Below, piece by piece: positions 7,873 to 60,797 of a stretch of 64,000 nucleotides of DNA. A program made the position numbers and the translations under genes. The stretch comes from Haliotis rufescens (lineage: Eukaryota), in assembly GCF_023055435.1 (NCBI RefSeq), contig NW_025963846.1, forward strand, positions 5,952,001-6,016,000. Reading direction: 5' to 3'. How positions within the stretch are numbered: position 1 is the stretch's first letter; each line of letters begins with the position of its first letter. The notes under the pieces were generated by a model. That model had not been told where the DNA came from, ran no database searches, and worked only from the letters and a program-made list of their open reading frames with translations.

Positions 7873-7894
7873 GGTGTCGAATATGTGGTGCTTG

Positions 7895-36511: not shown

Positions 36512-36764
36512 TTTATATTTCAGCTATTGACGTTTCACGTTTTCTGGATAAGATTTGAAGGGATATATGGGGATCATTGTGTGATTCGAATCTAGTAAAC
36601 AAATATGTTCATTAATGTTGTTTTCTGTTCTGTTCTTGAAAGTCTGTTTAGAGAGCTTATTCATGTTAATCCTTAACAAATATTACTTTGCTACCGGGAA
36701 AACGAAAACAACTAGTCTCGTGACCTAACCTGCTTTGCCTAAAAGAATAGACCAATAAGTAATG

Positions 36765-37650
36765 AGTAGAGAGAAAGTAATACCTTCCGGACAAAAGCAT
36801 TCCTGTGGAGCGTGGAGCACCAACAAAAGCATTCCTGTGGAGCATAGAATTTCAACAAATTCCTGTGGAGCATGGAATTTTCTAACAAAAGCATTCCTGT
36901 GGAGCATGGAATTTTTCTAACAAAAGCATTTCTGTGGAGCGTAGAGTAAAGAAACAAACAAAAGCATTCCTGTGGAGCGTAGAGTAAAGAAACAAACAAA
37001 AGCATTCTTGTGGAGCATACCACAGAGGTCAGTCAATACCTTCCACATAATAGAAGCAAATTTTGCTAAAGGAGACTAGCAGTAAGGCTGGCTCTGTATA
37101 TATTCGCTCTGTTCAAACATGTAACTATGGCACCGCTCATTAGTATCAATACACTAGAGGTAGCTCTCTCTTACCCACTCTTTACACGCAAGAGTAAATA
37201 TATTCGTGTGTGGGTTTTAACCGCTGAACCTGTTAACCCTTTCACCGAAGTCAATTCATTTATAATCATTTTACTCTAATTCATTCACGTTTCACTAAGT
37301 GTTAAAGGCGCATAGAGTATTGAAACAAACAAAAGCATTCTTGTGGAGCATACCACAGAGGGCAGTCAATACCTTTCACACAATAGAAGCAAAAGTTTGC
37401 TAAAGGAGACCAGCAGTAAGGCTGGCTCTGTATATATTCGCTCTGTTCAAACATGTAACTATGTCACCACCGCACATTAGTATCAATACACTAGAGGTAG
37501 CTCTCTCTCACCCCACTCTTTACACGCAAGAGTAAATCTATTCGTGTGTGGGTTTTGACCGCTGAACCTGTTAACCCTTTCACCGGTGTCAATTCATTAT
37601 AAACATTTTCTTTCTCTTCTTCATTCACGTTTCACTAAGTGTTAAAATAT
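36765..37650. repeat. left TIR and subterminal repeats
   Basis: Terminal 89 bp identical to the right end; tandem CAAAAGCATTCCTGTGGAGC units; a ~330-bp block present twice (~37000-37325 and ~37325-37650). Confidence 0.92.
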
Positions 37651-38142
37651 TATGTTATTATTCATAGTGGCATTCATTAACCTTTATCTATTAACATTTC
37701 TATCACTCTTTAACTTTTTATCTGTTTCAGTATGCTAACGTAACACTAAGGGTTAAAGGTTGCTTTTAGACGATCACCAACTAGTCGCTGTTACTTGTGT
37801 TCGTCATTATGTTAGAACTTGAGTAGAAAGTATACATTATACCCATCGACAGATGTGTAATTCGTATGTTTTCTGCTTTATGACATATAACTAATTGATG
37901 TAATAATAATAATGAAAAATAAAAGTGAACTTACCTTTTGACTGATCAACACTGTTTCATTAATCATTTCCTCCATATATTCCGTTTGAATTAACCATCC
38001 GCTCAGTTCATATTTGGTTTAATCATATTTATTCCATCAATTGTTCATGACAGTATTTAGCAAACAAGCCGAGCTGGCTTATGAAAATGCTTCTCCTGAT
38101 TACATATATATATATATATAAACATAAATCAGTCAGGATCAA

Positions 38143-38818
38143 TTAATATATACTTTTAACTAAATCACTAACTAGCCGATCGCTTCCCGATACAGTGTAT
38201 GACACAAGAAAAAGCTCAGAACATAGCAAATTAGAGTTTAACAATAACTGTTCATATTTCATCGAATATACGAACGAGTGTATGTCTGTCACATTTTTCA
38301 ACAACCTCAAGTTTTTACTCGTATGTTTCGTAATATCTTCGAGTTTTACTATACATGAAAACAGTTCCCGAAGCGAATCGTTTGCAAGTAAATCACTCTT
38401 CAGAGTGCTATTGAATTTTCCCACATCTACTTTTTCTTCTTGTTCTTTGTTATATCCTCAAGTTTTTCTTGCACAAGTTTCGTCATATCCTCGTGTTTTA
38501 CTGCACACGAAAACAGTTCACTCAGTGAATCGTTGGTACGTAAAACACATAACAGTGTTCTGTTGAATTTTCTCACAACCACTTTCTTGTTCTTTGTTTT
38601 GAATAACGTTTATATTTTCTGCAGAAGGTATGTGTTCTTCTTGCCACTCTTCTCATCTCATTTCGAAGTTTTTCTTTTCTTTTATCATAATCAGCAATTA
38701 ACGTCTGAGCTTCCAAACAACGAATTTGTTTTTCCACTAAAAGCACTGATCGATTGTTTGGTTCAGCGGTTTCACTTTGTATTCCAAGCGATCTTAAAAA
38801 AACCTCTTTAGACGTCAT
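38143..38818 (-). pseudogene. possible degenerate or frameshifted Polinton accessory gene with ~150-bp internal duplication
   Basis: Two charged ORF pieces (81 and 93 aa); 38330-38425 is similar to 38480-38575. Confidence 0.35.
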
Positions 38819-39371
38819 TTTGTAAAATCTAATTTCTGGTGGTGTTTTGGGGTTTGTTTTTTTCGAAGTACCCCTTGCTGTACTAAAATGTATAGCTTAA
38901 CTATTCCTCCGCTCTTTTATAACAACTACGCTTTATACTTCTCTTTCCTACTTTTTTGTTGACCTATGTGGGAAAAGTAAATCTTATTCATTTTCAAACC
39001 GCAAACTTATATTTCAACACGTGTGGGAAAAGCAAATATCAATCAGTAGACCAGAGTCTATTCTTTATCTGTTACTATTTACTAACGACGTCGGTAGGCT
39101 GTAATTATTTATCTTATCTAACGAAATTTGACAACTGATACGTCGGCGGTAGGTTGCTATTATGTATCTTATCTAACGAAATCTGTCAACTGTTACAATG
39201 TCAAGATATCCCCAAGCAGAATACGTTCAAATACGATTAATTTGTCACGCGCACTTTGAATAGCACCGGTGTTCGTTGTGTTAGAAAAACCACACAAAAA
39301 TGTTTTACAGATTCATATAAATATATAGCGTATGCGATTTTATTTATTTTTTAGTATTCAGCTGTCTTGTC

Positions 39372-39722
39372 ATGCCGTTCGAAATCTCTTTTAAATCTGA
39401 TTGGACATATAACATCGAATTTTATAACGAAAATACTTCTATTAGCGTGTGCAATCATCTGAAACCAATTTTGAAATCTTTTTTAATTTATATTTTAGAC
39501 GAAATTTTAATTTATAGAAATAGTTTTCACCTTCATAACGCTTTGTTAACTTATGATATTTGTTCAACACATTTTACTTTGAACCGGCAGACTGAAGTGT
39601 TAACTGTAAATCAGTCAAATGGACAAGTGCAGCTGTCAGTAGGTGAAATTCGGGATATAATTTCATCTGTTAATCTATTGGAGCATTTTTTCCAAGAAAG
39701 AGTATTCCAAAACAAATTCTGA
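39372..39722 (+). CDS. Polinton hypothetical protein (116 aa)
   Basis: ATG-initiated ORF after a TATAAAA element (~39316) in AT-rich sequence; no recognised motif. Confidence 0.45.
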   Translation: MPFEISFKSDWTYNIEFYNENTSISVCNHLKPILKSFLIYILDEILIYRNSFHLHNALLTYDICSTHFTLNRQTEVLTVNQSNGQVQLSVGEIRDIISSVNLLEHFFQERVFQNKF

Positions 39723-40125
39723 AAAGGTAAGTTTTTATTTTATTATTTAATTTTAACTATATGCATTGCAATCAGTATTAATAGCACATTGTGTAAAGAA
39801 CGTAAATCTATCACCCATTCGCAACTTTATTACATGTTTACGGTATATAATGAATTTATAAGATTTAAGATGATTATATATGTTGGTCAGGACAGAATAG
39901 GCGGTTGGGGTGAGGAAAGACCAACTGATAATACATGTTTTACAACAGTCGCAAGGAAATAATGTCTATACCCTATATTCATTTTCATCTTGATCACTCT
40001 ACACAATGTTTTCATAGTCGTACACAATGGATGACCTTTCAACTACAAAAGTCCATTCAGACGTCAGATTCTATAAATCTAGCAGCGTGCGAAGTTAGTT
40101 TTTTTTTCACTCTGCCTGTGAAAAA

Positions 40126-40413
40126 ATGTCCGTTTCGTTTATGCTGAGAAATCCCACTCGCACAGATTATAATTTCGGTATTAGGCAACTTCGTCATTCT
40201 ATTTTTTTAAATTTTATTTCATCACGAAATTTGCTCTTTATTCTACAAAATCCACAGATAGAAAATAATATCAGTATTTTCTGTAAAATTTATTTTCGTA
40301 CGGATTTTACAGGAGCAATTATAATCCACGGAGAAGTGTTTATTTATTTAACAAGGAGACAATTAAAAAACCTTCAAAGTTGCCTGGAATTGTCGTTGCG
40401 CTTATCAACGTGA
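40126..40413 (+). CDS. Polinton hypothetical protein (95 aa)
   Basis: ATG ORF overlapping the end of the 39935-40147 ORF; no recognised motif. Confidence 0.4.
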   Translation: MSVSFMLRNPTRTDYNFGIRQLRHSIFLNFISSRNLLFILQNPQIENNISIFCKIYFRTDFTGAIIIHGEVFIYLTRRQLKNLQSCLELSLRLST

Positions 40414-40619
40414 GTATCTCTTTTATTTTCGTTGGTTATTCTTTGTAACTAGAAAGAAGGTTATTCGTTGTCACTTGTAACAAAGCTTTAATTTCATTCC
40501 ATTATCGACTTTCCTTTGATGACGCTCATGTGAGCGGCTTTCATCTCTCTACTACGTGTCATTTTGCACGTATAACAATGAACTGTCAATTTCGGGTGGG
40601 TTGTGGTATGGTGGTATTG

Positions 40620-40730
40620 TTTTATCCAATCAGCACGATCACATTTTGCACATGTGTTAATGTATTGCCAATGTTTGGCTGTTATTGAATATCCAATCAG
40701 AGTACGATATTAATTGTATATAAAAACCGT
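40620..40730 (+). promoter_or_regulatory. Pol II promoter of the membrane-protein gene
   Basis: Two ATCCAATCAG CCAAT boxes (~40624, ~40691) and TATATAAAAA (~40718), about 70 nt upstream of the ATG at 40793. Confidence 0.65.
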
Positions 40731-40792
40731 TGAAATCGCTAATTTATACCATTGAGAGAAAAAAAAAAAAAGAAAGAAAGAAAAAAAAAAAA

Positions 40793-41354
40793 ATGTTGAT
40801 AATAGTTTTGATCTACGTTGTTGTCGGTATTTCACATGGTGATGCTTTGCCGTGCTCATGGATCGGAGGATCAACTTTATCATGCTCTACCGAACAGCAT
40901 AAGTCAATTTCTCTTTTGTCCGGTCAACTCTATCGAGGAATATCCGTCATAAGAATTCACGGTTCACCATCACTGCTGCTAATCAACGGTGATTTGTTTC
41001 CACAACTGCAGGTATGCTATTCTATTTCTGTCCTGTCCTGTCCTGTCCTGTCCTGTCCTGTCCCGTCCTATCCTGTCCTGTTCACAGTCTAGTCTATTCT
41101 ATTCACAGGCAATTATAGGAGACGTGGACTGCAGCCGTGTTGTCGGCGTTCAGGTGCCGGTGAATGGCAAGTGGTGCAGTGGTAAGTATTTCATATATTT
41201 AGTCTGATTGACTGTTATTTTTCGTAATTAGTTACAAACTTTTTATTTTCTGTTGAACCTTTTATTTTGAAATCTTGTATTGCACAAACTTTATATTGTT
41301 TTATTATTGTTTTGCTTTCAGAGCTATCAACAACTGCTATTTCTTTATCTCTCT

Positions 41355-41385
<31 letters not shown>

Positions 41386-41959
41386 TACTACTACTACCAC
41401 TATCATTACTACTCTCCCTCCTACTTCCTCTACTGTTAGAATTAATAGCCTCTCATTGTTTCCTGCTACGGTTAATACTTCCACTTCTACTGCAGCTACT
41501 ACTACTGCACCAACTACCACAACTACTAATCCTGTTGTTACTAACCCTACTGCTACTACTACTACTGCTACTACTGCAGCTACGTCTACTACAGCTACTT
41601 CTCCAACTACTAATCCCGTTGTTACTAACCCTGTTGGCACTAACCCTGTTGCTATTACCACCTCCACAACTTCTACTGTTTCTTCTGTTAAATCATCTAC
41701 TCTGATTATTACCGGTTCTGTTGCTAATATTTCTTCACCAACTTCCACCGCTGATATCCGAAGCACCCGGTTATCAGATTCTACTATCGTAGGTATAACT
41801 ATTATTATTATTATCATCATATTCTTTCTGTTAATGGTTTTTTATTTGGTTTATCGAAAAAGGAAAGGTAATCATACAAGGTATATATCACCTCCTCCAG
41901 ATATAGAAGATAATGAGATAGAATTGTTTACATTTCAATCTAAAGTTAATAAATGTTAA
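40793..41959 (+). CDS. spliced type I membrane glycoprotein, mucin-stalk isoform (exons 40793-41011, 41109-41181, 41322-41959)
   Basis: Signal peptide MLIIVLIYVVVGISHG, small ectodomain with 4 Cys, Thr/Ser-rich stalk, TM segment IVGITIIIIIIIFFLLMVFYLVY, basic stop-transfer RKRK; canonical GT-AG introns with matching phases (0, 1). Confidence 0.8.
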
Positions 41960-42000
41960 AATTTTATTCTAACACTTTTATATTTTTATTTTTATTTTTT

Positions 42001-42033
<33 letters not shown>

Positions 42034-42068
42034 TTTTTTACCTATTCTTCACTTCATTTACCCATCAG

Positions 42069-42479
42069 CAAGACCCTATCACCCCTCCCATCCCTACACT
42101 ATCAGCAACGGCGATGGCTATGATGATGATGATCATCATGATGAGGAGTGTCGTGGTTGTGGTAAGTATTATTATAATTTAGTGTCGTGTCTGTGGTAAA
42201 TTTGAAGTTATAAATGTAATACTTGGATTTGGAGTTTATATTAATTGAACTTTAATTTTTAACTTTAATTTAATTATTACTTTTTCAGTGATGAAGTCGG
42301 AGGTGACGGCACTCCTCATCATGGCTGTCCTGGCTGCGGTGGGCATTCCGTCGGGACTCGCTTTGCGGTGGTTTCTCCGCAGGAGACGGAATGCCCGCCG
42401 CACCCTTCACCGTCACCGTCGCGAGGAGGAGGAGCACGATGAACCACCTCACCTCAGGCGGGAAGTAACAGAATTGTAA
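42069..42479 (+). CDS. alternative 3' exons of the same gene (42069-42161, 42289-42479): His/Asp spacer, TM segment, Arg-rich tail
   Basis: 93-nt phase 1-1 exon ARPYHPSHPYTISNGDGYDDDDHHDEECRGC joins in frame to VMKSEVTALLIMAVLAAVGIPSGLALRWFLRRRR...TEL*; AATAAA follows at ~42506. Confidence 0.7.
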
Positions 42480-42643
42480 TCAATAACGCATTAATCCTTG
42501 TAAACAATAAATTCTATGATTATGATAAAAATATATGTTTTATGTCTTGTTTTATCTAGTAACGTTGTAGTCTTGCGAGCGTTTTTCCGATAAACCCGCC
42601 AGAGTTGATTGTGGTATATATATATAATATATGTATGTATATA

Positions 42644-42687
<44 letters not shown>

Positions 42688-42801
42688 ACCTCGAAACCAG
42701 TTGGAAACAAGTCATTAGCCTTCACGGTTGTCACTGGTAAACCCCGTCAAAACAAAGAAAGCCGGTTGGTATGAATACATATACCGAAATACGGATGAAG
42801 C

Positions 42802-43037
42802 GAGCGACCTACTCGTCTGATCCAAGGGAGGTAACTCGTATCACACTAGTGGCTCATATCAATTTGTCAGACCAAGAGAGCGACCGGCTCGCCTGATCCG
42901 AGGGAGGTAACTCGTATCACACTAGTGGTTCATATCACATTGTTAGACCAAGAGAGCGGCTGACTCGTCTGATCCAAGGGAGGTAACTCGTATCACACAA
43001 GTGTCTTATATCACGCATTGATATACCAAGAGAGCGA
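42802..43037. repeat. three ~76-bp direct repeats containing CTGATCC.AGGGAGGTAACTCGTATCACAC
   Basis: Unit starts at 42802, 42878 and 42954. Confidence 0.9.
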
Positions 43038-43189
43038 ATAACTATGAATTGAAACATAAAACATACACACATTCTGATTTTAAATATGCTTTTTTTATTT
43101 TAGAAAACACAGTGAAATGCTTGCGTATGTGGCAATAATATCCGTGATGTAAATAAATCTACGTTGAAGCAGTCTTTTTCTTTCTCGTC

Positions 43190-44046
43190 TCAACGAACAT
43201 TGTACCCCTCGATGGCTGAAAAGGAAGGGTGAATTATTAATAATAATAATAATAATAATAATAATCCAAAGCACTCAAAGCAGTACCAAAACTGATTCCT
43301 AAATGGTTGTACACTACTGCTCGCAAGTTAGTCACCGTTGTAAATACACTACTTTACGAAAGTTTATGTCCGTGAAAATGCAAAATACAGTGCTAAAGTC
43401 ATTATAAACTACCGCTCATGCTTTGTTCCGAATGAGAAAGTGTAGTAACCGCGAAATATAAGCAATGGCTGTACACTACCGCTCGCAAGTTAGTCACCAT
43501 TATGAAATAGGCTACTAAACAAAAGTTTATACCCATGAAAATGAAAATACAGAGCTGAAGTCATTTATAAACTACTACTCATGCTTGTTTTTAATGATAA
43601 AACTGTTGTAACCACAACATTAAAACACACCTGTATTATATCAAAACTAACTTACCATCAGCATAACCCCGCTTCAGTTGGTTAGTTACCGGATTGGTTC
43701 TTCCTGTTGTTAGCGTTTTACCAGCTGGCATCGTTCCGGTAGGCATATTTCCGACAGCAGCAGGATAAGAGGGCGGAGGTGGGGGTACCATGTCGCTTCC
43801 CGTCTGAGGAATACCCGGAATGACTGGAACTTCGCATGCCATCTCATAGCCCTCCAAAGCAGATAGAATTTGTTCGCGATCTTCAAACAGTTTTCTAAAT
43901 ACACTGCTTTTCAAGGAAATGGTTTTCCTTTCCTTTTTGCTGTTGTAGTTTGAAAGATGCACCCAAGCATCATCGCGAAACAAGTTGATGGACAACCAAT
44001 GTCCAGCAGCCCACTCAAACGTAGTGTGGTTGTGATTGTCAGACAT
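43190..44046 (-). CDS. PC4/p15-like ssDNA-binding protein, two exons (44046-43656, 43215-43190)
   Basis: FEWAAGHWLSINLFRDDAWVHLSNY...KTISLKSSVFRKL follows the PC4 pattern; Pro-rich tail with PPPPSY; donor GATG|GTAAGT joins in frame to TTTTCAG|CC ATC GAG...CGT TGA. Confidence 0.65.
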
Positions 44047-45200
44047 TTTTGAGTAAAGTGTCTTCTCCACTAACCACTATCACGTTGTATTTATACTCAC
44101 TCCTCAAGTAAGGTGATTCAGCATGTTGACACTTTCTCACGGGAAAAACTACTTCATTATGTTACCTTGTTCTTTTCAAATGGTATCAACTGTTACACCC
44201 CACATACAAATGGAGTATACATTTACTTCTGACTCACTATACTTTGCTTGTAAGTGATGGTATACGATTTTTAATTAGTACGTTTTCTAGATACTCCCCT
44301 GTTTGATCAGTCGGCAGCCCTATAGACTTAACAAGAGCGAATCCACAAAGCCACCACTTGTTACTCTATCATTTTTAATCAATATCGAGTTTTTAGTAAC
44401 ACACTCTCTATACAGCTCTTTCATTAAGGAACATCTGTACTTTTAAAGTGTCACGTTTTCAGCACCATCCCATGGTAAACACTCAACAACAATAAATTGT
44501 ATAGCTTGTGTACTCAGTCAAGGTGATTCAGCAGTTCATTTTTATATAGTCTTTCATAAAGAAACACCTGTGCTTTTAAAGAGACACGTTTTCAGTACCA
44601 TCCCATGGTAAACATTTCCCATCAATAACAAAAATAAAATTAAAAAAGTTGTATTGCTTGTGTACTCGGTCAAGGTGATTCAGCAGTTCATAGTACTACC
44701 CTATTATACACCCCGCTTGATACATCTGTCTTGAAGCAACCTGAAACTGTTTTGAATAGCAGCCAAACCACTCATGTTCATTGTTAGCAGCTGTTTGCAC
44801 TTAAGTTTGAACTAATATTTCTATAGAGCTCCAAAATGTATAGTTTGGAATAAGAAGTCCATTCACTTTTATATTTTTCACCATTTTCGTCTGAGAAATT
44901 GCCAAGGCAACATCAACCAAAAGTGTACAGGAAACGTTAACCATTAACACGCATCCTTAGGATAGGAATCTCCAGCAAAAGAGCAAGTACTCCACTTTTA
45001 CTGCATACTTACACTTTGACATTTGTTAGATTATTTAAAACTTATACACTTAACGTATTATTTAAAACTTATTATCACGATATAATACTTAAAACTGATA
45101 GTAACCATTTTAGTTTAATGCTTAGTTGATGTTCGTTTTTGTTTTTTTGTTTTCAGGTAACTACCAACTCATACACACTTAGTTGGTGAATACCTATTTA

Positions 45201-50178: not shown

Positions 50179-50264
50179 AAGTCGCATGTGTTAGCATTAT
50201 TTTATTGCTTTACAATCTGAAAGTTACATAGAATATATATCATGAATTCAATGTACATGTACAG

Positions 50265-50867: not shown

Positions 50868-51180
50868 GATGTAGGTAATCTAACAGTGCAGCAATGCAAA
50901 TAGGCAAGATGGAATGATGTCTTATCAACACCTCCTTTTTAACCCGATTGGGAAAACCTTCTTTGGCAGCCAATGTTCTAATGTGAAACCTATGACGGTG
51001 CAAGCGAGTTTTATCCATCAGTGAGAGTGGAATATTCCCTTTCAAAATGTTTAACATCATGCTATTAATAGCATGCATTTGTTCACATGACACATATTGA
51101 AGTAAAGCTTTTCTCTGCTTCACATTAGCCTGCAGTAGTGTTTGAAGAAAAGACAGATGTTTTTCCAGTAAATCACCCAT
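50725..51180 (-). CDS. conserved small basic Polinton protein (putative virion core protein)
   Basis: KQRKALL...LNILKGNIPL...LHRHR..IRTLA pattern typical of a small Polinton ORF; overlaps the next gene. Confidence 0.75.
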   Translation of the reverse strand: MGDLLEKHLSFLQTLLQANVKQRKALLQYVSCEQMHAINSMMLNILKGNIPLSLMDKTRLHRHRFHIRTLAAKEGFPNRVKKEVLIRHHSILPICIAALLDYLHHEQTYGSPEQKHIPTSNRQPGKGEDSDTGTTDNDSDSRSGDESSETE

Positions 51181-51299
51181 ATTGAAGTGAGGAGATCACA
51201 ATGTGAAATGATCCAACTAGGTAATTGTGTCTTATATATATATATATATATATGTATGCTTAGACTCTAATATTCCTCATACACCATAGCCAATGTCTC

Positions 51300-51629
51300 T
51301 CATTCAGTATTAGAAGCTATCATGTTTATGTAACTACACTGAGGTGATAACCTGAAATGTTCAGTTAGTGGATCATCTTCTGGCATCCATTTATGTACAC
51401 GCAATCGACACATGAAACAGTAGACTTTATCTGATTGACCCGTGTAAATGAATCCTGCTTGTGCCATAGTCTTCAGTGACTGTTTCATTTGCATGGGCCA
51501 ACTGACAAAGGACTTTAATCTCTCACAAAAGCTATGACCATACACTTCAGCATTGGTTGAAATCACTGAACAATCGTTAGCAATATCTTCAAATCGTCCG
51601 CAAACATCCATGATGATCTTGGTAAGCAA
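51300..51629 (-). CDS. single-BIR inhibitor-of-apoptosis protein
   Basis: ERLKSF.SWP, AQAGFIYTG..DKVYC, and an exact C-x2-C-x16-H-x6-C zinc motif; no RING domain. Confidence 0.93.
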   Translation of the reverse strand: MLTKIIMDVCGRFEDIANDCSVISTNAEVYGHSFCERLKSFVSWPMQMKQSLKTMAQAGFIYTGQSDKVYCFMCRLRVHKWMPEDDPLTEHFRLSPQCSYINMIASNTE

Positions 51630-51686
51630 CTGATCTGTTCATTGGTAAGACAGGCAACTGGTGGGTATAACTTTGAGCAGTAGCTT

Positions 51687-52388
51687 TTATTTGGGTTGGT
51701 ACACAATACATACTTCATCTGGAAAGACACCACTGCGCAGACGCCCATACTGAGGATCGGAATAGGGTGATACATCAATCATTAAATATTGAAATTTCTT
51801 TCCCTCCACTGCATCACGAAATGATTCAGTAAAATATTTGGCTTGACCCGGAAATATTTGAGATGCCAAGATTTTATATTCATGTGCAGAACGTGGGTTA
51901 GATAGCAAAATGAAGTAGTGTGTATTCAAGGAAATAGTTCGGTTACAATCCCCCTTAGGATAAGCAGACTGTTGAATATTTATAACACTGATTCCCCAAT
52001 GATGAGACAATGTAGTGTAGAGATTTAACATCAGTGGACTTTTACATATATCCATCATCATGTCATCCATGACCAACACCATGTTCTTTTCAGATTGCTC
52101 AGACCACATTTTCAAATCATTCTCAGTTGGAAGGGAATCCATAAAAAGAATGTTAGAAATGTTTTGCCGCATGTCACTGTAGATGTCTTGCCATACAGTA
52201 TAACAGTACACAATAAGGTTGGGAGGTTTGTCAAACATCAGATTAGTCTGCTCTAACAACCTTTTCACCCAAACTGTTTTCCCTGAGGAAGATCCACCAA
52301 TCACAGATATGGTGGTAGGTGTTTGTATTGGTAAGAGACACTTACGTTCCATGATCACACTCTGAGCACAATAATTCAACTGTGACAT
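51687..52388 (-). CDS. A32/FtsK-like genome-packaging ATPase
   Basis: Walker A GGSSSGKT, Walker B VLVMDD, SHHWGISV..IQQ, RTISLNTHY. Confidence 0.95.
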   Translation of the reverse strand: MSQLNYCAQSVIMERKCLLPIQTPTTISVIGGSSSGKTVWVKRLLEQTNLMFDKPPNLIVYCYTVWQDIYSDMRQNISNILFMDSLPTENDLKMWSEQSEKNMVLVMDDMMMDICKSPLMLNLYTTLSHHWGISVINIQQSAYPKGDCNRTISLNTHYFILLSNPRSAHEYKILASQIFPGQAKYFTESFRDAVEGKKFQYLMIDVSPYSDPQYGRLRSGVFPDEVCIVYQPK

Positions 52389-52488
52389 TACAGCTGAGTT
52401 ACTTATATTTATAGAACAAACTCGAATGACTACACTAATTTCTTTTTTATTTTATTTTTGTAATGGGTTACACAAGTACAGTAGTATG

Positions 52489-52983
52489 TTACATGACACA
52501 GGTATGACAAGATAACAAACAATATCTAAAATAATTACAGATAAACTTTGACACATGCTCATCATTGTTAAAACGGACTTGCACATCAAATATCTGTACA
52601 AAGGTTTGAAGGGTAAGTTCTGTTTTGCATTTATACAACAAATAATATAAACAATAATGACCACAAAGGTTGGACGATGAGGACTGTAACTGTCTTCTGT
52701 TGTGTTGGTATTGATTGACATATGTTTTTAAGAACAAGTCAAAAACGGAATTCACTGGCTCACCCAGACTGTCAAACAGTTCCCCTGTATTTCCTTTGAA
52801 GTACATAGCCACCCAGTGACGACCCAGTCTTCCAGATGGATCAGTATTGACAATGAGACCCACTCCACGTGCAAGCATGACACTAGTTAGCACAGGTAAA
52901 GTATCTTTGGCAAACACACCTAAGACCTGGTACTTTAAGATGGAGTCACTTTGAATAGCACATGCAAGGTCAGAGGCTTTCAT
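52489..52983 (-). CDS. adenain-like cysteine maturation protease
   Basis: IVNTD...GRHWVA (His), FDSLG (Asp), LQ.....CGHYC (Gln/Cys). Confidence 0.95.
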   Translation of the reverse strand: MKASDLACAIQSDSILKYQVLGVFAKDTLPVLTSVMLARGVGLIVNTDPSGRLGRHWVAMYFKGNTGELFDSLGEPVNSVFDLFLKTYVNQYQHNRRQLQSSSSNLCGHYCLYYLLYKCKTELTLQTFVQIFDVQVRFNNDEHVSKFICNYFRYCLLSCHTCVM

Positions 52984-52988
52984 GTTTT

Positions 52989-54290
52989 TTACTTCACAAA
53001 CACGTTCCTGGTCTTGTCAATTTCAATGAGGGAATTTCTTTCACTCAGAACAACACAACTGAGTGTTTCAGTGAGGGCGTTTTTGAACTCGATTTCTAGT
53101 CGGGTGCTACCAGATTTCAACAGATTCAGATAGTCGGTTTCACTGCATACTTTATCAATGTCAAAGACGAACAGGGCACTCCCAAGCAAAAAGTCGCTCC
53201 GAGTGATTCCGTTTCCTGTATTTTCTTTCCACAGACACATCCCATCAAACATCTGCACGTAGGACTCAACATCATCTGCCTGCATGGGACGTCCGGGGAC
53301 ACTGGCACCATTGATGTACAGGCTGATGTTTTTCACCATACTAGATTGGAAGTTGTAGGGGTTACCAGTGTAAGATCCATTCAAGCTGTTGCTGAGTACA
53401 AAGCCTACAATGTAACGATTAGCAATAGGATTCGACAGATTGTCAATGGTATGTGTCAGTTGAGTGGTGGGGATGCTTGTCACCTTGACCTCACTTTTGG
53501 TGTAAGGATACAGAGCATTGCTGTCTTGAAACAAGGTGTTGTGAGCCAAAATAAGAGCTGGATTGACTTTCAGTTTACACACCTTCAGGTAGGTATCCAG
53601 AATTTCTACCTTGTAATCTTGACCTGTTTTGCCACTCATCAAACAGAACTGGGGCGAGGAGCGGTACAGCTTCATTGTCAAATCCACTCCATTGACTAAA
53701 TGTCTGTTCATGTGAAAGATATCTTCATACAATGGTCCCGACATGGTCAAGACTTTACTATTATTAATGAAGCCACCACGAGATTGCACTCCTGTATTGA
53801 GACCAGTGTAGGGATCGGATGATTCTACATCATTGATAGATTCAGACACATCTTTGTAGAAGAGTTGAGATGACAGCTGTGAAGTTTTAGCTTCTGTTCC
53901 ATAGTTGAGTAGAGTTTTCATCATGCTCTTGTAAGCATAATGGTTGTTTGTAGAAGATACCAACTGATTCTGCAGATACACTGACACCTGGGAAAAGAGA
54001 GCCTGCAGAAACAAGTTGACAGGGACAATATGTTCCTTGTCATCGAGATCAGTGCCATCTGCATGTTTCACCTTGAGCTTCACATGTATGCGGGTACGGT
54101 TCAGGTCAATGTAATCACTTCCAGCATTCGTTACTTGAAATTCCAACGGTGAAGAATCATTGATTTGACTGAGTGGACGCACCTCATCAAAATAATGTTG
54201 ATGGATGCTGGTCTGGTATGGAGGTAAAATAAACAGATTGAGAGAGGGTGGTATCAGTTCCTCAAAGTCTTTATCATTCAACAGTGACAT
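52989..54290 (-). CDS. major capsid protein (double jelly-roll, PY)
   Basis: LNLF.LPP.QTSI, PLEF......DYIDL, PVNLFLQALFSQV, YAYKS...TLLNYG, NPYNFQ, G..RLEIEF; likely start MSLLND (ORF open from 54329). Confidence 0.93.
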   Translation of the reverse strand: MSLLNDKDFEELIPPSLNLFILPPYQTSIHQHYFDEVRPLSQINDSSPLEFQVTNAGSDYIDLNRTRIHVKLKVKHADGTDLDDKEHIVPVNLFLQALFSQVSVYLQNQLVSSTNNHYAYKSMMKTLLNYGTEAKTSQLSSQLFYKDVSESINDVESSDPYTGLNTGVQSRGGFINNSKVLTMSGPLYEDIFHMNRHLVNGVDLTMKLYRSSPQFCLMSGKTGQDYKVEILDTYLKVCKLKVNPALILAHNTLFQDSNALYPYTKSEVKVTSIPTTQLTHTIDNLSNPIANRYIVGFVLSNSLNGSYTGNPYNFQSSMVKNISLYINGASVPGRPMQADDVESYVQMFDGMCLWKENTGNGITRSDFLLGSALFVFDIDKVCSETDYLNLLKSGSTRLEIEFKNALTETLSCVVLSERNSLIEIDKTRNVFVK

Positions 54291-54292
54291 GA

Positions 54293-54643
54293 TTAACTGA
54301 AAACGTCGTTTTCTCGAATAGGGGTACACTGGAGAACCTTAGCGGTCTTTGATGGAATGTTATCTGTCTGACGGATCTTCTTTGAAGTGGCAATTTGGTC
54401 ACCTGCAGCTCGTTTTAAAGATTTCCGTCGCTTTTCTTTGGCATTGGCTCTCTCAACAATATTCTGCGTCTCTGATGTTACTTCCAGTTTGATCTTGGGT
54501 TCTTCAGTCTTCACTTGAAGTCGTGTCGGGATCACTTTCACCTGTGGTTTACCATTCACTAAGGCAGATGTTCCTTTCATGTGTTTCTTGAAATAGTGGG
54601 TCCATTTAACATAATCAGGGACATACAAAGGTGTGGACTCCAT
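54293..54643 (-). CDS. small basic Polinton protein between penton and MCP
   Basis: ATG ORF abutting both neighbours; Lys/Arg-rich C-terminus. Confidence 0.7.
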   Translation of the reverse strand: MESTPLYVPDYVKWTHYFKKHMKGTSALVNGKPQVKVIPTRLQVKTEEPKIKLEVTSETQNIVERANAKEKRRKSLKRAAGDQIATSKKIRQTDNIPSKTAKVLQCTPIRENDVFS

Positions 54644-54645
54644 GG

Positions 54646-55074
54646 TTAATCAATGAAGGGATACCGTCTCAAGTGCAGTGTCACATATGTCACTTCCTTT
54701 AGAAATGAGTGTGACATGCCGTTACTGGCCTTTATACGTACCTCTATGTGTGGAGATTCTTTGACTTTAATCGGAATATTGTATTCACATGCAAAGCTAT
54801 AGTAAGGACCTTGTCTGAGATCAAGCCGTCTCAATAAAGGCAACTGCTGTTCACCTGCCAAAGAACTATCACACAGATTGCATAACACGTCCACATATGG
54901 ATCATTCATGTGGGTGATGTCAAGTTTACCAAAATTAATCTCCGTTAAAGACACAACCCAGAATCCATCAAAATTCAACCTTTGATTTAGTTTAACACGA
55001 AAATGATAAGGCGTATTCTCATTAAAATAAGATTGTTTGGAGTCTGAGCTTTTGAGAAATATGTACCTTTCCAT
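54646..55074 (-). CDS. minor capsid protein (penton, PX), very short
   Basis: N-terminal YIFLKSSDS..YF.ENT...FRVKL...L...GFW.VSLTEI and C-terminal GEQQLPLLR...IEVRI...VTLHLRR penton signatures. Confidence 0.85.
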   Translation of the reverse strand: MERYIFLKSSDSKQSYFNENTPYHFRVKLNQRLNFDGFWVVSLTEINFGKLDITHMNDPYVDVLCNLCDSSLAGEQQLPLLRRLDLRQGPYYSFACEYNIPIKVKESPHIEVRIKASNGMSHSFLKEVTYVTLHLRRYPFID

Positions 55075-56213
55075 CAGATATCTTTCAGTTCACTTTCCTC
55101 CATATAAGAATCGAAGGAACTCGGCCAGCCCAACCACCTCACTAACAGGTAGGTCTTCCCTTTCACACGTTTTCTCTTTAAAATCTTCTCTACCTGCCAC
55201 AAAACATTTTCCTTTTTCTCCACCTTTTGTAACTCATTGCCATAAAACGTACCTTCTATCAGTTTATCATGAAAGTCTTTGATCTTATACTGTGCTATCT
55301 CTTGTCTCTTGTATCGTCTAACCACCTTAAACAGCTCTTGAGTCCACTTCAGATCAAGTTCCTTACTGAAAGGTCTCCGGAGGTATGGAATGCGAACAAG
55401 ATCCCCTACTTTAAATACAAATGCCTTTGACCGGTTGTGTTTGGAGCTTTGTTTTTTAAGTAACAACGGCTTCACATACAAATGTTCCCATACTTTCAGT
55501 TCATTCTTCTTCTTGACTTGAACCGGTGAAAGGTTGGGCAAAGAAGAATGTAATGTGTTGTTATAATTGTCCATCAACTTAGGTAGTGCATCTAAATAAT
55601 ACTTGGTGTTATTATGGGTCAAGTAACGAGTAATAAGTGATTTCAGTGTTCTGTTGAATCGTTCCACATAATTACTTTTGATATTTTCATTATGTGCAAC
55701 AGTCAGAGTGATATTGTGTTTTTCTAAAAAATGTTTAAATACTCCTTTAAACTCTGAACCACCATCCACACGTACTTTCATTGGATTTCGTTCCTGAATA
55801 ATTTCTTTAAAAGCTTTCAATACTGTCTCTGGTCTCTTATTTGTTAAAGGTAGAGCGAAAGCAAACCTACTCAGTATGTCAATAGCCACCAGTAAATAAC
55901 GCACGCCATTATTCTCCTTGCTGTAACGAGTCATGTCAGTCAAATCTACATCAAACATTTCATTTATAGAATTCACTCGAACTCTCAGCCTTTTGAATCT
56001 CTGTTTGGGTGGCTTGTGTAAACTGTAGGCGTCCTGTTTGTTCAGAAAACGTCTCACAGTGCTCAGTCTGAGATCTGGTTGACGATCTAATTTCAGAACG
56101 CTATGAAGTTTCTCAGGCCCATAAAAAGCTCCCGGTTCAAGCGGGTTAAAATAGTAACTTTCTAATATCTTCTCCTGTTTCTTTGTTAGCACCTTTCTCT
56201 GTTGTGGCTTCAT
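55074..56213 (-). CDS. RVE (retroviral-like) integrase with C-terminal chromodomain
   Basis: YFNP..PGAF.G, DDE triad (DVDLTD, VDGGSEF, VERFNRTLK), chromodomain WQVEKILKRK....YLLVRWLGW. Confidence 0.97.
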   Translation of the reverse strand: MKPQQRKVLTKKQEKILESYYFNPLEPGAFYGPEKLHSVLKLDRQPDLRLSTVRRFLNKQDAYSLHKPPKQRFKRLRVRVNSINEMFDVDLTDMTRYSKENNGVRYLLVAIDILSRFAFALPLTNKRPETVLKAFKEIIQERNPMKVRVDGGSEFKGVFKHFLEKHNITLTVAHNENIKSNYVERFNRTLKSLITRYLTHNNTKYYLDALPKLMDNYNNTLHSSLPNLSPVQVKKKNELKVWEHLYVKPLLLKKQSSKHNRSKAFVFKVGDLVRIPYLRRPFSKELDLKWTQELFKVVRRYKRQEIAQYKIKDFHDKLIEGTFYGNELQKVEKKENVLWQVEKILKRKRVKGKTYLLVRWLGWPSSFDSYMEESELKDI

Positions 56214-56410
56214 GATGAAATGAGAGAAGCACTGACAACAGACACCTATTAAAGAACAACCATTTGATAACTATCAAAAGAAGACAAACAAAGATGTAAG
56301 CATAATTTATGTTTTATTCATAGTATGAATATTGCTAAAGTACACACACACTCACACATACACACACATTTCATTTTGGTACTGATAAAATAATATGACA
56401 TGGAAACAGT

Positions 56411-57034
56411 CTACAAGCGTTTTTGCAACTTCAACATTTTTACAACACATTGCTTCAAACCATTCACCCATTCAGGTGATTTGAATGTATTGTCACGATA
56501 GTCCTTACACTGGTAAGGTACTAAATTGAAAGCAGGCATTGTGCACAGATGTGGATCATCAATCACAAGTTTCATCCATTTTCCTATTACCAGTTCATTG
56601 TCCATATCCTCAAGTGCCGCGTTGAAGTATTTATCAACCTGCTCCTGCTCCGTCATGCGACAAGAATGATCTCCCAAAAATAATGGATCACTTTCTTCAT
56701 TAAACAGACAAGGAATACACATTTCACATGCGAGCTGACTGATCATTTTACTCACTTCTAAAGAGTAACTCATCGTGAGAAGATCCTCTGCTTGTTTCAG
56801 TTTTGTAGCCATATCTACTTCATCAGCATTGAGTGGTAAGGTTTTCATCTTCTTGATAATGACTCTCTTTGTTGCCTTGTATTCATCTTTAAATTTTCTC
56901 TTTGCATCTTTCACGCATTCTTCCTTATCTTGAAACCACTCAGGTGATTGTGTTATGACTGGTTCATTTAGAGTGTGTGGCATCCGCATGACCTGCTTCC
57001 ATGAGTAGAATGTAGTTTTCTTGCCGCTGTTCAA
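56411..57034 (-). CDS. Polinton accessory protein, putative paralog of 49564-50178
   Basis: Motif LACEMCIPC...DHSCRM...QVDKYFNAA; the 5' end is probably spliced (acceptor-like TTTTGAACAG near 57027). Confidence 0.7.
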   Translation of the reverse strand: MNSGKKTTFYSWKQVMRMPHTLNEPVITQSPEWFQDKEECVKDAKRKFKDEYKATKRVIIKKMKTLPLNADEVDMATKLKQAEDLLTMSYSLEVSKMISQLACEMCIPCLFNEESDPLFLGDHSCRMTEQEQVDKYFNAALEDMDNELVIGKWMKLVIDDPHLCTMPAFNLVPYQCKDYRDNTFKSPEWVNGLKQCVVKMLKLQKRL

Positions 57035-57071
57035 AATAGCAAGTTACATCACTGTAACACATTTAAAACCA

Positions 57072-57578
57072 TCAGTTTTCACTTGACTCTGTGTTCATTA
57101 TTTCATTTCTAACCTTTATTAAGATCTGACCAAGTCTATTACTGCCTTTCCATTTAGATGGATTAAGAATATTAGGGTCATGCAGTGATAGACCCACACC
57201 CCACACACGATCATATGGACTCGCTTCTACCAAGATCTTGGGAAAAGTGTCTAACAGTTGTTTCTTCAGAAAAACAGACTGAGAGAATTTAGCTGAAGAT
57301 GCTGCATACACCACATTGGAACTCACAACATCCCATTGGCGTTGATTAAAACATCTCACACTTCTACCTAAACGTTTTTGTTCAGCAGCAGAAACACACT
57401 TTAAAATCTTATGCGCAGTTTCCCAATCACTGAACATACAAGCTTTTTTATACATGTAATACTGCTCAGCACAGTTAAATGCTATTCCTTCAATAACAAT
57501 CTCAGTAGAAAAATGTTGACTAAACACTGAAGTTCTGGTGTAAAAAAATACATACTTGTCAGTTGTTCGGGTTCCCAT
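57072..57578 (-). CDS. NADAR family (YbiA-like) N-glycosidase / ADP-ribosyl hydrolase
   Basis: FSQHF, FNCAEQYYMYKKA.MF.D, KRLGRSV..F....W, AKFSQ, LVEASPYDRVWGVG, WKGSNRLGQILIKVR; likely start MGTRTTD (ORF open from 57659). Confidence 0.93.
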   Translation of the reverse strand: MGTRTTDKYVFFYTRTSVFSQHFSTEIVIEGIAFNCAEQYYMYKKACMFSDWETAHKILKCVSAAEQKRLGRSVRCFNQRQWDVVSSNVVYAASSAKFSQSVFLKKQLLDTFPKILVEASPYDRVWGVGLSLHDPNILNPSKWKGSNRLGQILIKVRNEIMNTESSEN

Positions 57579-57673
57579 GATCAGATTCGAGATGTATACT
57601 GGCGTGAAGATTTCGTCTTGTTGACAAGATCGCTGTTTAAGCACGAATGAAAGCTTCAACAGTTTAACACTGC

Positions 57674-57916
57674 TTAACTTCTATAAAATTGAATTTCATT
57701 GGTGTACTTTGTCTTCCTTAGCGTTTCATTGGTTACTGAGTATTCATCGTACCATACATTTAATAAGTGGATGACACGTTGATCCTGGAATGTTATTGTT
57801 ATAGGGTTAACAGGTTCAGCGTCTAAAACCCACACACGAATAGATTTACTCTTGCGTATAAAGAGTGGGTGAGAGAGAGCTACCTCTAGTGTATTGATAC
57901 TAGTGAGCGGTGACAT
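57674..57916 (-). CDS. small hypothetical protein starting inside the right subterminal repeat
   Basis: ATG about 30 nt after TATATA; the first ~38 codons are also present in the left-end repeats. Confidence 0.45.
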   Translation of the reverse strand: MSPLTSINTLEVALSHPLFIRKSKSIRVWVLDAEPVNPITITFQDQRVIHLLNVWYDEYSVTNETLRKTKYTNEIQFYRS

Positions 57917-58561
57917 AGTTAGATGTTTGAACAGAGCGAATATATACAGAGCCAGCCTTACTGCTGGTCACCTTTAGCAAAATTTGCTTCTATTATGTGA
58001 AAGGTATTGACTGACCTCTGTGGTATGCTCCACAAGAATGCTTTTGTTTGTTTCTTTACTCTATGCGTCTTTAACACTTAGTGAAACGTGAATGAAGTAG
58101 AGAAAAATGTTTATAAACGAATTGATTTCGGTGAAAGGGTTAACAGGTTCAGCGGTTAAAACCCACACACGAGTAGATTTATAGAAATGCTGCTCCACAG
58201 GAATGCTTTTGATAGAAATTCAACGCTCCACAGGAATGCTTTTGTTGGAAATTCTTTGCTCCACAGGAATGCTTTTGTTTGTTTCTTTACTCTTTGCTCC
58301 ACAGGAATGTTTTTGATGGAAATTCTTTGCTCCACAGGAATGTTTTTGATGGAAATTCCACGCTCTACAGGGCTGCTTTTGTCCGGAAGGTAACAGGTAT
58401 GCTTTTGTTGGAAATTCAATGCTCCACAGGAATGCTTTTGTTGGAAATTCAATGCTCCACAGGAATTTGTTGGAAATTCTATGCTCCACAGGAATGCTTT
58501 TGTTGGTGCTCCACGCTCCACAGGAATGCTTTTGTCCGGAAGGTATTACTTTCTCTCTACT
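57803..58561. repeat. right TIR and subterminal repeats
   Basis: Reverse complement of the left-end blocks, with a different repeat count and arrangement. Confidence 0.92.
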
Positions 58562-60797
58562 GTAATGATCCGTAAAGAAGTTGTTCATCCATATTTCTTA
58601 TCCTTACTTAATACTCCAACTTCTAAATGCCTCTCAAAGAAGAAAAGACCAATGTTCAAAGACGAATAAAAATGAAACAAACAAGAAATGGTTATTTGAT
58701 TATAATGTATTAGATACAGGTACCATAGTTGGACTTTAGGCCCTAAGTTTCCAGTGTTGTGGTGATTGTTTTTTGTTCAGCCCTGTAACATTTTGATAAT
58801 GTTTGTAATGTTTTGGTCCAATCCATTTTTTCAGGTGTATACTTTCTTTTGCACGACAATTTACGTACAATTTCCTATGAATACTGAGAACATCTACCTG
58901 GCGATGTTAGTTTGATTTATCAAGTTGTGTTGAGAAACATACGTACGACAAAGATAGGGGTCATTGCCACGCGAGAAAAGTAATGTCTTCTGCGGATCTG
59001 GTGTTTGGGTGGTGGTTGAGTGGGCGTGACGTGTTTTCCAACTTTTTCAAAAAGCTGTATCCGCGATTGAATATACTATAACGTTCATATCCACAGAAAG
59101 TATAAAATGTTCTTTTATTCGACAGACAGCGTCACGTGTTATTTCGTGAGTGAGTATGGTTTTGCGCCGCTCATAGTAATATTCCGGTAATATCACGGCG
59201 GGGAGCACCAGAAATAGAAAATGTTATTTATATCGACATTGTAATTATGTGCACAAAATGTGTCATTTGTGTCAGCGGTTCCAATACAGTTCATTTTTGT
59301 CCCAAAACACACGACGTGTTGCAATCCAGACTGACACATGACTCGCCTGTGGAAACAACAACTTGTCACCGACTGTCGTCCTAATCGACTCCACACGATA
59401 AGCACGATGTGCACAGACAGAGGTGGCCGCACATCCGGTCTACAGCCCTCATATTGGACTGATAAAGTCTGTTTCGAAATGTTTGTATCGGAAGTGCTAC
59501 ACCTGTAACCTTGCAAAATCCGTTATCCCTGAGACGTTATGTTTGAACGATTTTGTTTTAAATTTCCTCACAACAGACAGGGGTAAACAAATACCATTGC
59601 CCGACGCCCGTGCCAAGTACGATTTAGAAAGTCAAGCGAGTAATATACATTGTACAATGTCTAGCATGTCCGTGGACGGGTAAGATGTGATAAGTAAATT
59701 GGGTTTAACGTCTCGTTTTTCTTAAAGAAAAGTAAATGAATGATCAGAATCCCCTCCGCCTTCATCTTTAGCGTGCCCCCGCAGAAAACCCTAAGATTGG
59801 TGCAACATGATCCGAAGTACGTTAAAAGTTGGTGATGTAATTGTAGATATCCCGACCATGTGCGCTAATAAGCAAAGAGAGGCTACTCTATAATTCAATA
59901 GCTCACTATGTTTTTGAGTAAAGTGTACACACAAGCATAATGCGTACACCTCTTTGGGATGCAGTATTTTTGGGGGAGGGGGGGATTATTTTTACAAGTA
60001 TTATGCGCTGTACAAAAAACCTACATCATATCCCTTTAGGGAATTCAGGTGAACGAACAGGTGATAACAAACTTGATCGATACAAATGTGAAATTTGCGA
60101 TTAAATATTAATAGATGTTGGATTTACCATTTAAATTGTATTTACCATTCTGTTGGGCATTGTTTTATATGCAAGCATTAAGATTACCGAGTGTATTTTC
60201 ATGTAAACTAAACCGAAAATTGCAATCAGCTGTACATATTTTCTCCTAAATCTTCCGTGATTCAATTAAAATATACCTGATGGCGTAACTTAAAAGAAGT
60301 TAGATGCAAAGATAGGAAGAAACTGTATCTGAGACTGTTATTTTATCAGGGATTCCAATATCGTGTTATTTAATAGTTGAAGCTGTTACGATCGTGAAAA
60401 CGTTGTGTTGACAACAAATATGACTTTTAACGAGTCACAATATGGCATTTATGATATATGTACCCATTCTCTGTCAACTAACCTTTGTTTCAAGACGTCA
60501 ACAGCTTTAATCTGATCGTGGTTACTATAAATAACGTTGAGCTGGCAGTAGATCTACTTCACGTTACAAACAAGCCTGGTTCTCGTTGTTGACCCGTCAG
60601 ACCTCGACGTGTATTAATCTGATTGGTTTACTAGTGTATTTGTATGCAAATTATTGCCTATCTGGGGCACTAGCAAACTATTTGCCAATCAAATATCGTA
60701 ACAACACATGATTACATTCTCGTAAAACTTGTTCCAGTTTATTTAATGTGCCATGTTTGATTCCAAATGAGCCATGAAGCTTTGACTTGTAATACAG

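Follow-up and report, generated by a model that had tools for sequence, protein, structure and literature searches.

We analysed 64,000 nucleotides of the Haliotis rufescens genome (assembly GCF_023055435.1, contig NW_025963846.1, positions 5,952,001 to 6,016,000 of the forward strand), hereafter the window, and coordinates below count from its first letter. The window contains a Polinton/Maverick element of 21,797 bp at 36765-58561. On balance, and with moderate confidence, we favour the reading that the element is a recent copy of a multi-copy Polinton family with capsid, integrase and polymerase under purifying selection, that the family spreads via particles, and that its left arm carries a swappable cassette in which the ectodomain alleles of a predicted surface protein are kept diverse by selection at an interface with the host or with rival viruses. 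The observations behind this reading concern the structure of the element, its copies, the selection pattern of its genes, the allele pattern of the surface-protein gene and one spliced junction; particle spread is likely, judging from the sequence.

Element structure, copies and selection

The element is flanked on both sides by the hexamer GTAATG, the perfect target-site duplication (TSD) of the original prediction, and different 6-bp TSDs surround eight further copies. Its ends read AGTAGAGAG...CTCTCTACT, and the terminal inverted repeats (TIRs) have the AG...CT ends of Polinton/Maverick elements. The outermost inverted arms (36765-36853 and 58473-58561) are 100% identical over 89 bp, which confirms the identical termini claimed before. 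The full terminal repeats measure about 760-880 bp, contain tandem units and are 93-95% alike across alignable blocks.

36759-36764, unstranded: left TSD, GTAATG (from the sequence)
36765-37646, + strand: left TIR region, tandem units of ~33-38 bp plus a duplicated ~333-bp unit; the outermost 89 bp match the right end exactly
57798-58561, - strand: right TIR region (self-alignment)
58562-58567, unstranded: right TSD, GTAATG (from the sequence)

Six core genes had been described as free of stops and frameshifts, and all six are unbroken: a putative protein-primed family B DNA polymerase (pPolB; 1388 aa), packaging ATPase (233 aa), protease (164 aa), major capsid protein (MCP; 433 aa), minor capsid protein (142 aa) and integrase (INT; 379 aa). 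They are listed here with the conserved open reading frames (ORFs) between them.

45201-49367, + strand: putative pPolB, 1388 aa, with N-terminal zinc fingers and an endonuclease-VII-like Zn motif
50265-50867, - strand: conserved 200-aa ORF at the PZ position (by synteny; gene order of PMC8097293)
50725-51180, - strand: conserved 151-aa ORF at the PM position (by synteny; same gene order)
51687-52388, - strand: A32-type packaging ATPase, 233 aa; Pox_A32 (PF04665) E 3e-5, above the cut-off; Walker motifs
52489-52983, - strand: adenain-like maturation protease, 164 aa; Peptidase_C5 (PF00770) E 0.017, below the cut-off; H/D/Q/C motifs; position
52989-54290, - strand: double jelly-roll MCP, 433 aa; structure model and structure matches
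54293-54643, - strand: conserved 116-aa ORF at the PW position (by synteny; same gene order)
54646-55074, - strand: minor capsid (penton) candidate, 142 aa; predicted single jelly-roll; position
55074-56213, - strand: rve integrase with C-terminal chromodomain, 379 aa; PF00665 E 2e-10, PF00385 E 2e-6; DDE intact

The 1388-aa ORF had no polymerase match in Pfam, PHROGs or PDB sequences. It contains DFESLL, DFNSLY, KLMNN and TDTDS, which we take to be the exonuclease and Pol A/B/C motifs, as well as Cys and His motifs at residues 374-379 and 494-498; on motifs and context we accept it as the putative pPolB. The 164-aa ORF was counted as the adenain-like protease of a Polinton/Maverick on its sub-threshold profile match, catalytic motifs and position. 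Folding of the MCP with AlphaFold2 from a 74-row alignment gave a double jelly-roll (pLDDT 83.5) that matches the major capsids of mavirus, Sputnik, iridovirus and PBCV-1 at E ~2e-15. The model of the 142-aa ORF has a low pLDDT of 58 and generic jelly-roll matches (Z 7-9.2), none of those listed being a penton of the Polinton group.

Mapping of copies, a check proposed with the original prediction, was carried out in the 1.33-Gb genome. The MCP search gave at least 99 matches at no fewer than ~85 loci, and 12 loci hold the exact 33-nt terminus, 18 times in all. Both ends were found in seven of the 12 regions first examined, six with their own perfect 6-bp TSD and one with a single mismatch; two additional copies with their own TSD were identified later. 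Over 12.8 kb the window copy differs from its four closest sisters by 0.5-1.0%, and the closest copies lie in flanks unrelated to one another. A single-copy or domesticated element is ruled out by the MCP loci, the TSD-bearing copies and the 12 terminus loci. With unbroken core ORFs and sisters ~1% away that have their own TSDs, the element is intact and recently integrated, as had been claimed. When an empty insertion site was sought in the genome, no paralogue spanned the junction, and the sole match was a common repeat 250 bp upstream.

For the selection counts we used only unbroken natural frames and scored variants column by column in 13 copies, a shared variant being one found in at least two of the 13. 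Against its five closest copies the MCP shows 7-12 synonymous and 2-4 non-synonymous differences, with a ratio of non-synonymous to synonymous rates (dN/dS) of 0.05-0.16; its shared variants (32 synonymous to 12 non-synonymous) give 0.10 (p 2e-13). As far as selection goes, these capsid values bear out the virus-like character that had been proposed. The shared-variant dN/dS is 0.15 for INT, 0.19 for both pPolB and ATPase, 0.30 for the BIR gene (p 0.045) and 0.33 for the PC4-like gene (p 0.06). Private variants are nearer neutral, with dN/dS mostly 0.4-0.75. Among the six closest copies, the window copy has 19 synonymous and 17 non-synonymous private changes and no stops in 3,499 codons, and three sisters are similar. 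Since there are ~3.8 non-synonymous sites per synonymous site, this ratio suggests that most private changes predate the insertion and arose under selection; decay after insertion would be at most ~0.2%. The pattern disfavours copy-paste from one genomic master and favours recent particle spread. The same argument from selection has been applied to fish Mavericks, according to the available text of PMC8097293.

A second group of copies, ~3-5% distant, is mostly deleted or broken, and several of its members have no pPolB and are still bounded by TSDs. Therefore, mobilisation in trans inside cells does occur.

Some observations concern other copies and families. One polymerase-less 11-kb derivative is found at C131:17555-28392 and at C1:10303777-10314875 with nearly equal TSD and a common flank, probably one insertion on two haplotypes, and its deletion joint was also seen in sequencing runs X16 and X18. 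The element at C334:29713019-29734666 belongs to another Polinton family (56% capsid identity, NADAR, 313-bp TIRs, TSD); additional ORFs at 14.5-18.8 kb, spanning ~4 kb, resemble an inserted retroelement by eye. A family with 70% capsid identity (C445:42211918-42233329 and C52) has TIRs of 1.5-1.85 kb, pPolB on the strand of the capsid module, and a BIR gene, and is without NADAR and surface gene. A SPRY/Neuralized-like ORF (- strand; weak Pfam matches) adjoins a distant Polinton family. Annotated relatives of the MCP are found in Haliotis rufescens (99%), in H. cracherodii (fragments, 97%) and in Gigantopelta (79%). In a tree from a quick search, Gigantopelta and Haliotis rows are interleaved, with support of 91 at the fork uniting the window clade and a Gigantopelta row; we take this as a lead to possible transfer between these genera.

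The predicted surface-protein gene and its alleles

In the left arm lies a gene of five exons with GT-AG sites and consistent phase.

40793-41011, + strand: exon 1, signal peptide and start of a leucine-rich-repeat (LRR)-like ectodomain; hypervariable between copies
41109-41181, + strand: exon 2, remaining ectodomain, Cys pair; hypervariable
41322-41958, + strand: exon 3, mucin-like stalk (55% Ser/Thr), transmembrane helix and short tail; predicted isoform 1
42069-42161, + strand: exon 4, Asp/His-rich acidic linker; predicted isoform 2
42289-42479, + strand: exon 5, second transmembrane helix and basic tail; predicted isoform 2

Among 1.84 billion representatives there is a single credible relative, the automatic Haliotis cracherodii model XP_071098453.1, which corresponds to exons 1-2-4-5, uses the same exon 1-2 junction and is 95% identical to the window-type ectodomain allele; the other three of the four matches were spurious hits to repeat proteins. 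The spliced membrane glycoprotein of the original prediction thereby gains support from consistent GT-AG exons and from a model in another abalone, and the prediction is extended by two isoforms and by allele diversity confined to exons. A host origin of the gene was rejected, since all six genomic matches to exon 1 are Polinton. As for the ectodomain, the best Atlas match reached 0.90 and LRR families made up eight of the ten best matches, with no LRR match in Pfam; a resemblance to a miniature LRR domain of ~80 aa is a lead. A sister family keeps the exon layout with only 28% identity in exon 1, against 77-86% in the capsid.

Exons 1-3 are kept in five copies, which yield four ectodomain alleles with 61-66% protein identity to the window copy, and a sixth, deleted copy carries a fifth allele. 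Between alleles, dS is 0.37-1.28 and dN 0.08-0.22 in the mature part of exon 1, dS is 0.33-0.78 in exon 2, and dN/dS in the ectodomain exons is mostly 0.15-0.4. For these copies, dS to the window copy is only 0.04-0.11 in the core genes and the PC4-like gene, and the difference is 1-4% in intron 2 and upstream, so that intron 2, promoter and core together lie within 1-6%. In intron 1 the three divergent alleles are 2-5% apart from one another and 14-16% apart from the window copy. The divergence peaks in the 300-bp bin at 40700 (21-26% in three of four copies), whereas the other bins stay at or below 14.5%, mostly below 9%. In three copies the exons differ by 13-16% and the introns by 2-4% (Fisher p 1e-6 to 2e-5, from pairs that are not independent). 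Of 55 third codon positions 35 are variable, against 6 of 55 second positions; the substitution types are mixed (C/T 19, A/T 17, A/G 15 and others) and none dominates. Exon 3 is 96-97% conserved in two of the three divergent copies and truncated in the third.

Since old, constrained ectodomains are combined with backbones that differ by only ~1-6%, the gene carries old alleles on young backbones. We read this pattern as recombination together with long-term maintenance of alleles. Long-term maintenance of alleles is known from the exons of the major histocompatibility complex (MHC).

Accessory genes, transcripts and surroundings

The other members of the proposed host-interaction toolkit are a BIR protein, a PC4-like protein and a NADAR protein.

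43636-44046, - strand: likely PC4-like single-stranded DNA-binding protein; Atlas lead 0.82, PC4 in distant families
51300-51611, - strand: single-BIR protein, 103 aa, intronless; BIR Pfam E 5e-23; CxxC-H-C intact
57072-57578, - strand: YbiA-type NADAR hydrolase domain; PF08719 E 2e-43, 8BAU E 3e-13, 2B3W E 1e-8

The Pfam scan found no RING domain in the BIR protein. A BIR match lies within 6 kb of at least 36 of the ~85 capsid loci (0.1 expected), and the association extends to families with 28-31% capsid identity; conversely, 36 of the 146 BIR loci among the matches listed lie no more than 6 kb from a Polinton capsid. BIR is a near-core gene in the Polintons of the Haliotis rufescens genome. 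Close relatives are annotated as host inhibitor of apoptosis proteins (IAPs) in two abalone species. IAP homologues have already been reported in adintoviruses (PMC8502044, as far as its available text goes), where the text of Supplementary Fig. S2 places IAP labels beside Mytilus and Pinctada map names, the assignment being approximate. Intronless IAPs have been attributed to retroposition in PMC13159474 and PMC8917759, in whose available text the words 'polinton' and 'maverick' do not occur. Some genes of the molluscan 'IAP expansion' may be cargo of Polintons.

The PC4-like ORF has no Pfam match (PF02229) of its own. Distant Polinton families in the same genome show clear PF02229 matches (E 1e-15), with only ~15% alignment to the window ORF, and the available part of PMC8502044 has SSDBP labels in two adintovirus maps. 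The protein is more likely a replication or transcription helper than a counter-defence factor.

For NADAR, the fold-family match and the acidic catalytic positions predict a YbiA/NADAR hydrolase; columns equivalent to E38, K68, E118 and D123 are kept (invariant). In seven of nine further loci, at 56-78% identity, its neighbour is the 192-aa Cys-rich gene; of the 44 NADAR matches listed (of 118), 19 lie no more than 6 kb from a capsid. Against a 78% relative its dN/dS is 0.16. It is not present in four related elements mapped, and in another family a group of six matches is truncated and contains a stop. NADAR is an old but dispensable cargo. A recent capture from a host gene is unsupported, the clade being separate from molluscan cellular NADARs (FastTree, 70 rows). 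As a further observation, C112:19977005-20079955 holds ~20 partial NADAR matches in 100 kb, which probably represent either a tandem array of the host or some other repeat. In the accessible parts of the literature, NADARs reverse guanine ADP-ribosylation (PMC11125620), are known in phages, nucleocytoplasmic large DNA viruses and invertebrate RNA viruses (PMC9503650), and occur in oyster Tx1 long interspersed elements (LINEs) and brown-algal Ectocarpus Gypsy, elements that need no virion (PMC12477816); the same parts of these three papers do not name Polintons as NADAR carriers.

Of the toolkit parts, BIR and NADAR were therefore recovered with clear matches (E 5e-23 and 2e-43), and PC4 is likely, without a Pfam match of its own. 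The idea of a single novel counter-defence set found no support: IAP and SSDBP are already in adintoviruses (available text of PMC8502044) and PC4 spans distant families, while the glycoprotein and PC4 genes are missing together from three of the four closest sister insertions. NADAR, for its part, is also present in non-viral LINEs and Gypsy, shows no significant recent constraint (0.70) among shared variants, and is lost or broken in several mobile copies.

Transcription was assessed by comparing four runs over 38200-57790; that these runs are RNA is only guessed.

49424-49559, + strand: GT-AG intron, 136 nt; spliced out in contigs of two of the four runs, retained in 8/8 genomic copies tested

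Contigs of runs X15 and X18 do not contain 49424-49559, which is retained in all eight genomic copies; we conclude that these contigs are spliced transcripts. Accordingly, the 243-aa ORF at 49447 was corrected to a true start at 49564, downstream of the intron. Contig depth in X15 is 26-155 in the left arm, 23 in pPolB and 0-4 in the capsid module. The element is not silent in these contigs, and the combination of a single-copy, silent element with dN/dS near 1, named beforehand as speaking against the prediction, was not what we found. Fourteen further DNA or unlabelled runs, under three organism labels and from four studies, contain 70-75% of the sampled words; none of them is recorded as RNA. 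The small-RNA run X21 gave 38 reads in ~62% of the run. Metagenomes yielded one 4.5-kb contig (INT-mCP-PW-MCP, where mCP is the minor capsid protein) at 63-75% identity and with no cargo.

The remaining features of the element are as follows.

38573-38818, - strand: small basic ORF, 81 aa, maybe an exon within some longer gene; sister copies 65-90% identical
39372-39722, + strand: 116-aa ORF; ~30% homologues in two other Polinton families, no Pfam match
40126-40413, + strand: 95-aa ORF (ORF list, sister-copy comparison)
49564-50178, + strand: 204-aa Cys/His-rich protein, paralogue of 56411-56989
56411-56989, - strand: 192-aa Cys/His-rich protein, conserved across many families

Short direct repeats in the left arm at 42798-43025, 44417-44691 and 38325-38585 (76 bp three times; 133-152 bp twice) are possibly regulatory or recombination points. 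Outside the element, the single-exon host gene MGAT2 (N-acetylglucosaminyltransferase II; 33611-35005, + strand, Pfam E 5e-116) ends ~1.75 kb left of the insertion. A Tc1/mariner-like transposase remnant with helix-turn-helix and DDE_3 matches lies at 24214-24891 (- strand). Long open frames without clear family occupy 5296-6423 (+ strand) and 7869-10145 (- strand), the latter inside a strongly skewed repeat region.

Competing explanations and known systems

We propose that host RNA polymerase II would transcribe the left arm and pPolB early, with the late capsid genes off in the tissues seen. pPolB would copy the linear genome from its ends, outside the chromosome and probably aided by the PC4-like protein; the ATPase, protease and two capsid proteins would assemble particles, and the integrase would re-insert copies with 6-bp duplications. 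The single BIR would probably delay cell death via IAP-antagonist or caspase sites, and NADAR would probably strip ADP-ribose from guanine of the element's nucleic acid, a function only sometimes useful. The surface protein probably sits on the infected cell rather than on the non-enveloped particle, carried either by a mucin stalk or by a short acidic linker. Old ectodomain alleles would reach young backbones when genomes that replicate together recombine. A more far-reaching version is tentative, and we hold it to be doubtful: a circulating abalone Polinton virus with an E3-like cassette, whose two-form LRR-like surface gene has ancient trans-species alleles shuffled under frequency-dependent selection like MHC exons, whose NADAR acts against host DNA ADP-ribosylation, and whose lineage accounts for a considerable fraction of the intronless single-BIR genes in the molluscan IAP expansion.

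Several points weigh against particle spread and surface conflict. Particles and free linear genomes have only indirect support, from selection on the capsid; no excess in read depth was shown, and two pattern scans of IMG/VR found no relative. The ectodomain has a dN/dS under 1 and thus no direct signature of positive selection; in intron 1, which consists of a pentamer repeat, divergence may be hidden. Shared-variant dN/dS is 0.48 for the protease and 0.45 for the penton (both not significant) and 0.70 for NADAR (3 synonymous to 8 non-synonymous, not significant), which is moreover deleted in one close sister and has a stop codon in another. The segment 40408-44098, with the surface gene and PC4, is replaced in three of the four closest sisters by 1.2-1.5 kb without any ORF of 60 aa. 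No splice joint of the surface gene was seen in the four runs guessed to be RNA, in which reads are cut at the gene's repeats. Every cargo function is assigned from domain families, and polymerase-less copies flanked by TSDs exist.

An intracellular transposon, with its capsid serving an intracellular particle or germline transfer and its cargo serving persistence rather than infection of new hosts, would account for several of these points: polymerase-less and internally deleted copies have multiplied with ends and TSDs intact, sisters without the surface cassette are equally recent insertions, the capsid module is hardly covered in the four runs, the IMG/VR scans found no relative among viral contigs, and NADAR occurs in non-viral retrotransposons (available text of PMC12477816). 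We nevertheless judge it unlikely, because young copies show purifying selection on their private branches, because it is difficult to account for old, constrained and swapped alleles of a secreted-pathway protein unless there is a surface conflict, and because near-identical sequence occurs under three organism labels and in four studies, in runs that are DNA or unlabelled (share 0.70-0.75). The almost silent late module beside covered early genes would also suit a helper-dependent, virophage-like element reactivated by a larger mollusc DNA virus, in which BIR and the surface protein would either oppose the helper or work beside it (superinfection exclusion, keeping the cell alive) and the conflict partner is a virus rather than immunity. 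The nearest solved capsids, mavirus and Sputnik, agree with it, as expected for any Polinton. Polinton-like viruses associated with entomopoxviruses have reportedly been published (PMC11296320), which we count in its favour. However, spliceosomal introns, one of them spliced, indicate host nuclear transcription, and the element has its own polymerase, integrase and packaging genes, so this explanation seems to us distinctly improbable. The allele pattern might instead be mechanistic, produced by conversion from spliced cDNA, exon-targeted mutation or recent introns entering old intronless alleles: divergence ends near the exon borders, and the 40 terminal nt of intron 1 show 0-3 differences, the ~139 nt of intron 2 only 1-5. 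Yet no mutation type dominates, exon 3, part of the same transcript, shows 96-97% conservation in two of three divergent copies, no intronless donor is among the six genomic exon 1 matches and the element has no reverse transcriptase; we give such mechanisms very little weight.

In a farmed mollusc group, the family provides young copies that are partly transcribed and whose capsids are under selection, which makes the question of infectious Polintons testable by observation. Old surface alleles on young genomes are a footprint of live conflict and a handle for finding the partner. The presence of NADAR cargo suggests that molluscs may use nucleic-acid ADP-ribosylation in defence, and viral genes may be among those counted in molluscan IAP expansions.

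Among known systems, the comparison with published elements is limited to the available text of each source. Vertebrate Mavericks (PMC8097293) share the two inward-facing modules (pPolB; INT-mCP-PW-MCP-PRO), TIRs, a 6-bp TSD, a size range (12.7-24.6 kb) that includes ours, accessory regions at both ends and purifying selection on morphogenesis genes. In contrast, the abalone element resides in a gastropod, has the ATPase, PM-position and PZ-position genes on the capsid strand, BIR after the ATPase and NADAR at the right end, and starts with AGTAGA instead of (AGT)2. Adintoviruses (PMC8502044) likewise have PolB, an rve integrase with chromodomain, adenain, hexon, FtsK and IAP homologues, besides a penton, for which our element has a candidate, whereas the terms NADAR, PC4, mucin and glycoprotein are absent from the supplement text as available. 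Nematode Mavericks (10.1101/2022.07.12.499685) also carry a type I membrane protein and variable, intron-containing cargo near the TIR, and their modular exchange has been attributed to inter-Maverick recombination; however, their membrane protein is an 866-aa gB-like fusogen, while the abalone one is ~80-aa LRR-like without fusogen features, and the text available reports no transcription detected in nematodes.

With viral and transposon NADARs the element shares a YbiA-type domain with the same conserved columns, and its clade stands apart from molluscan cellular NADARs. The adenovirus E3 region, from a related virus lineage, is a spliced, dispensable and highly variable cassette of type I membrane glycoproteins. 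The likeness of our surface cassette to E3 is an analogy only, with no sequence similarity shown. In a literature search that most subscription papers and Repbase lay beyond, we found no Polinton reported to have NADAR, a two-isoform surface gene of mucin/LRR-like type or allele diversity confined to exons; Supplementary Fig. S1, tables and maps of PMC8502044 may hold such annotations. The core is that of an ordinary Polinton, and accessory regions, IAPs, intron-bearing cargo and a fusogen membrane protein are already known; the new part is the five-exon membrane-protein gene with its exon-confined allele diversity.

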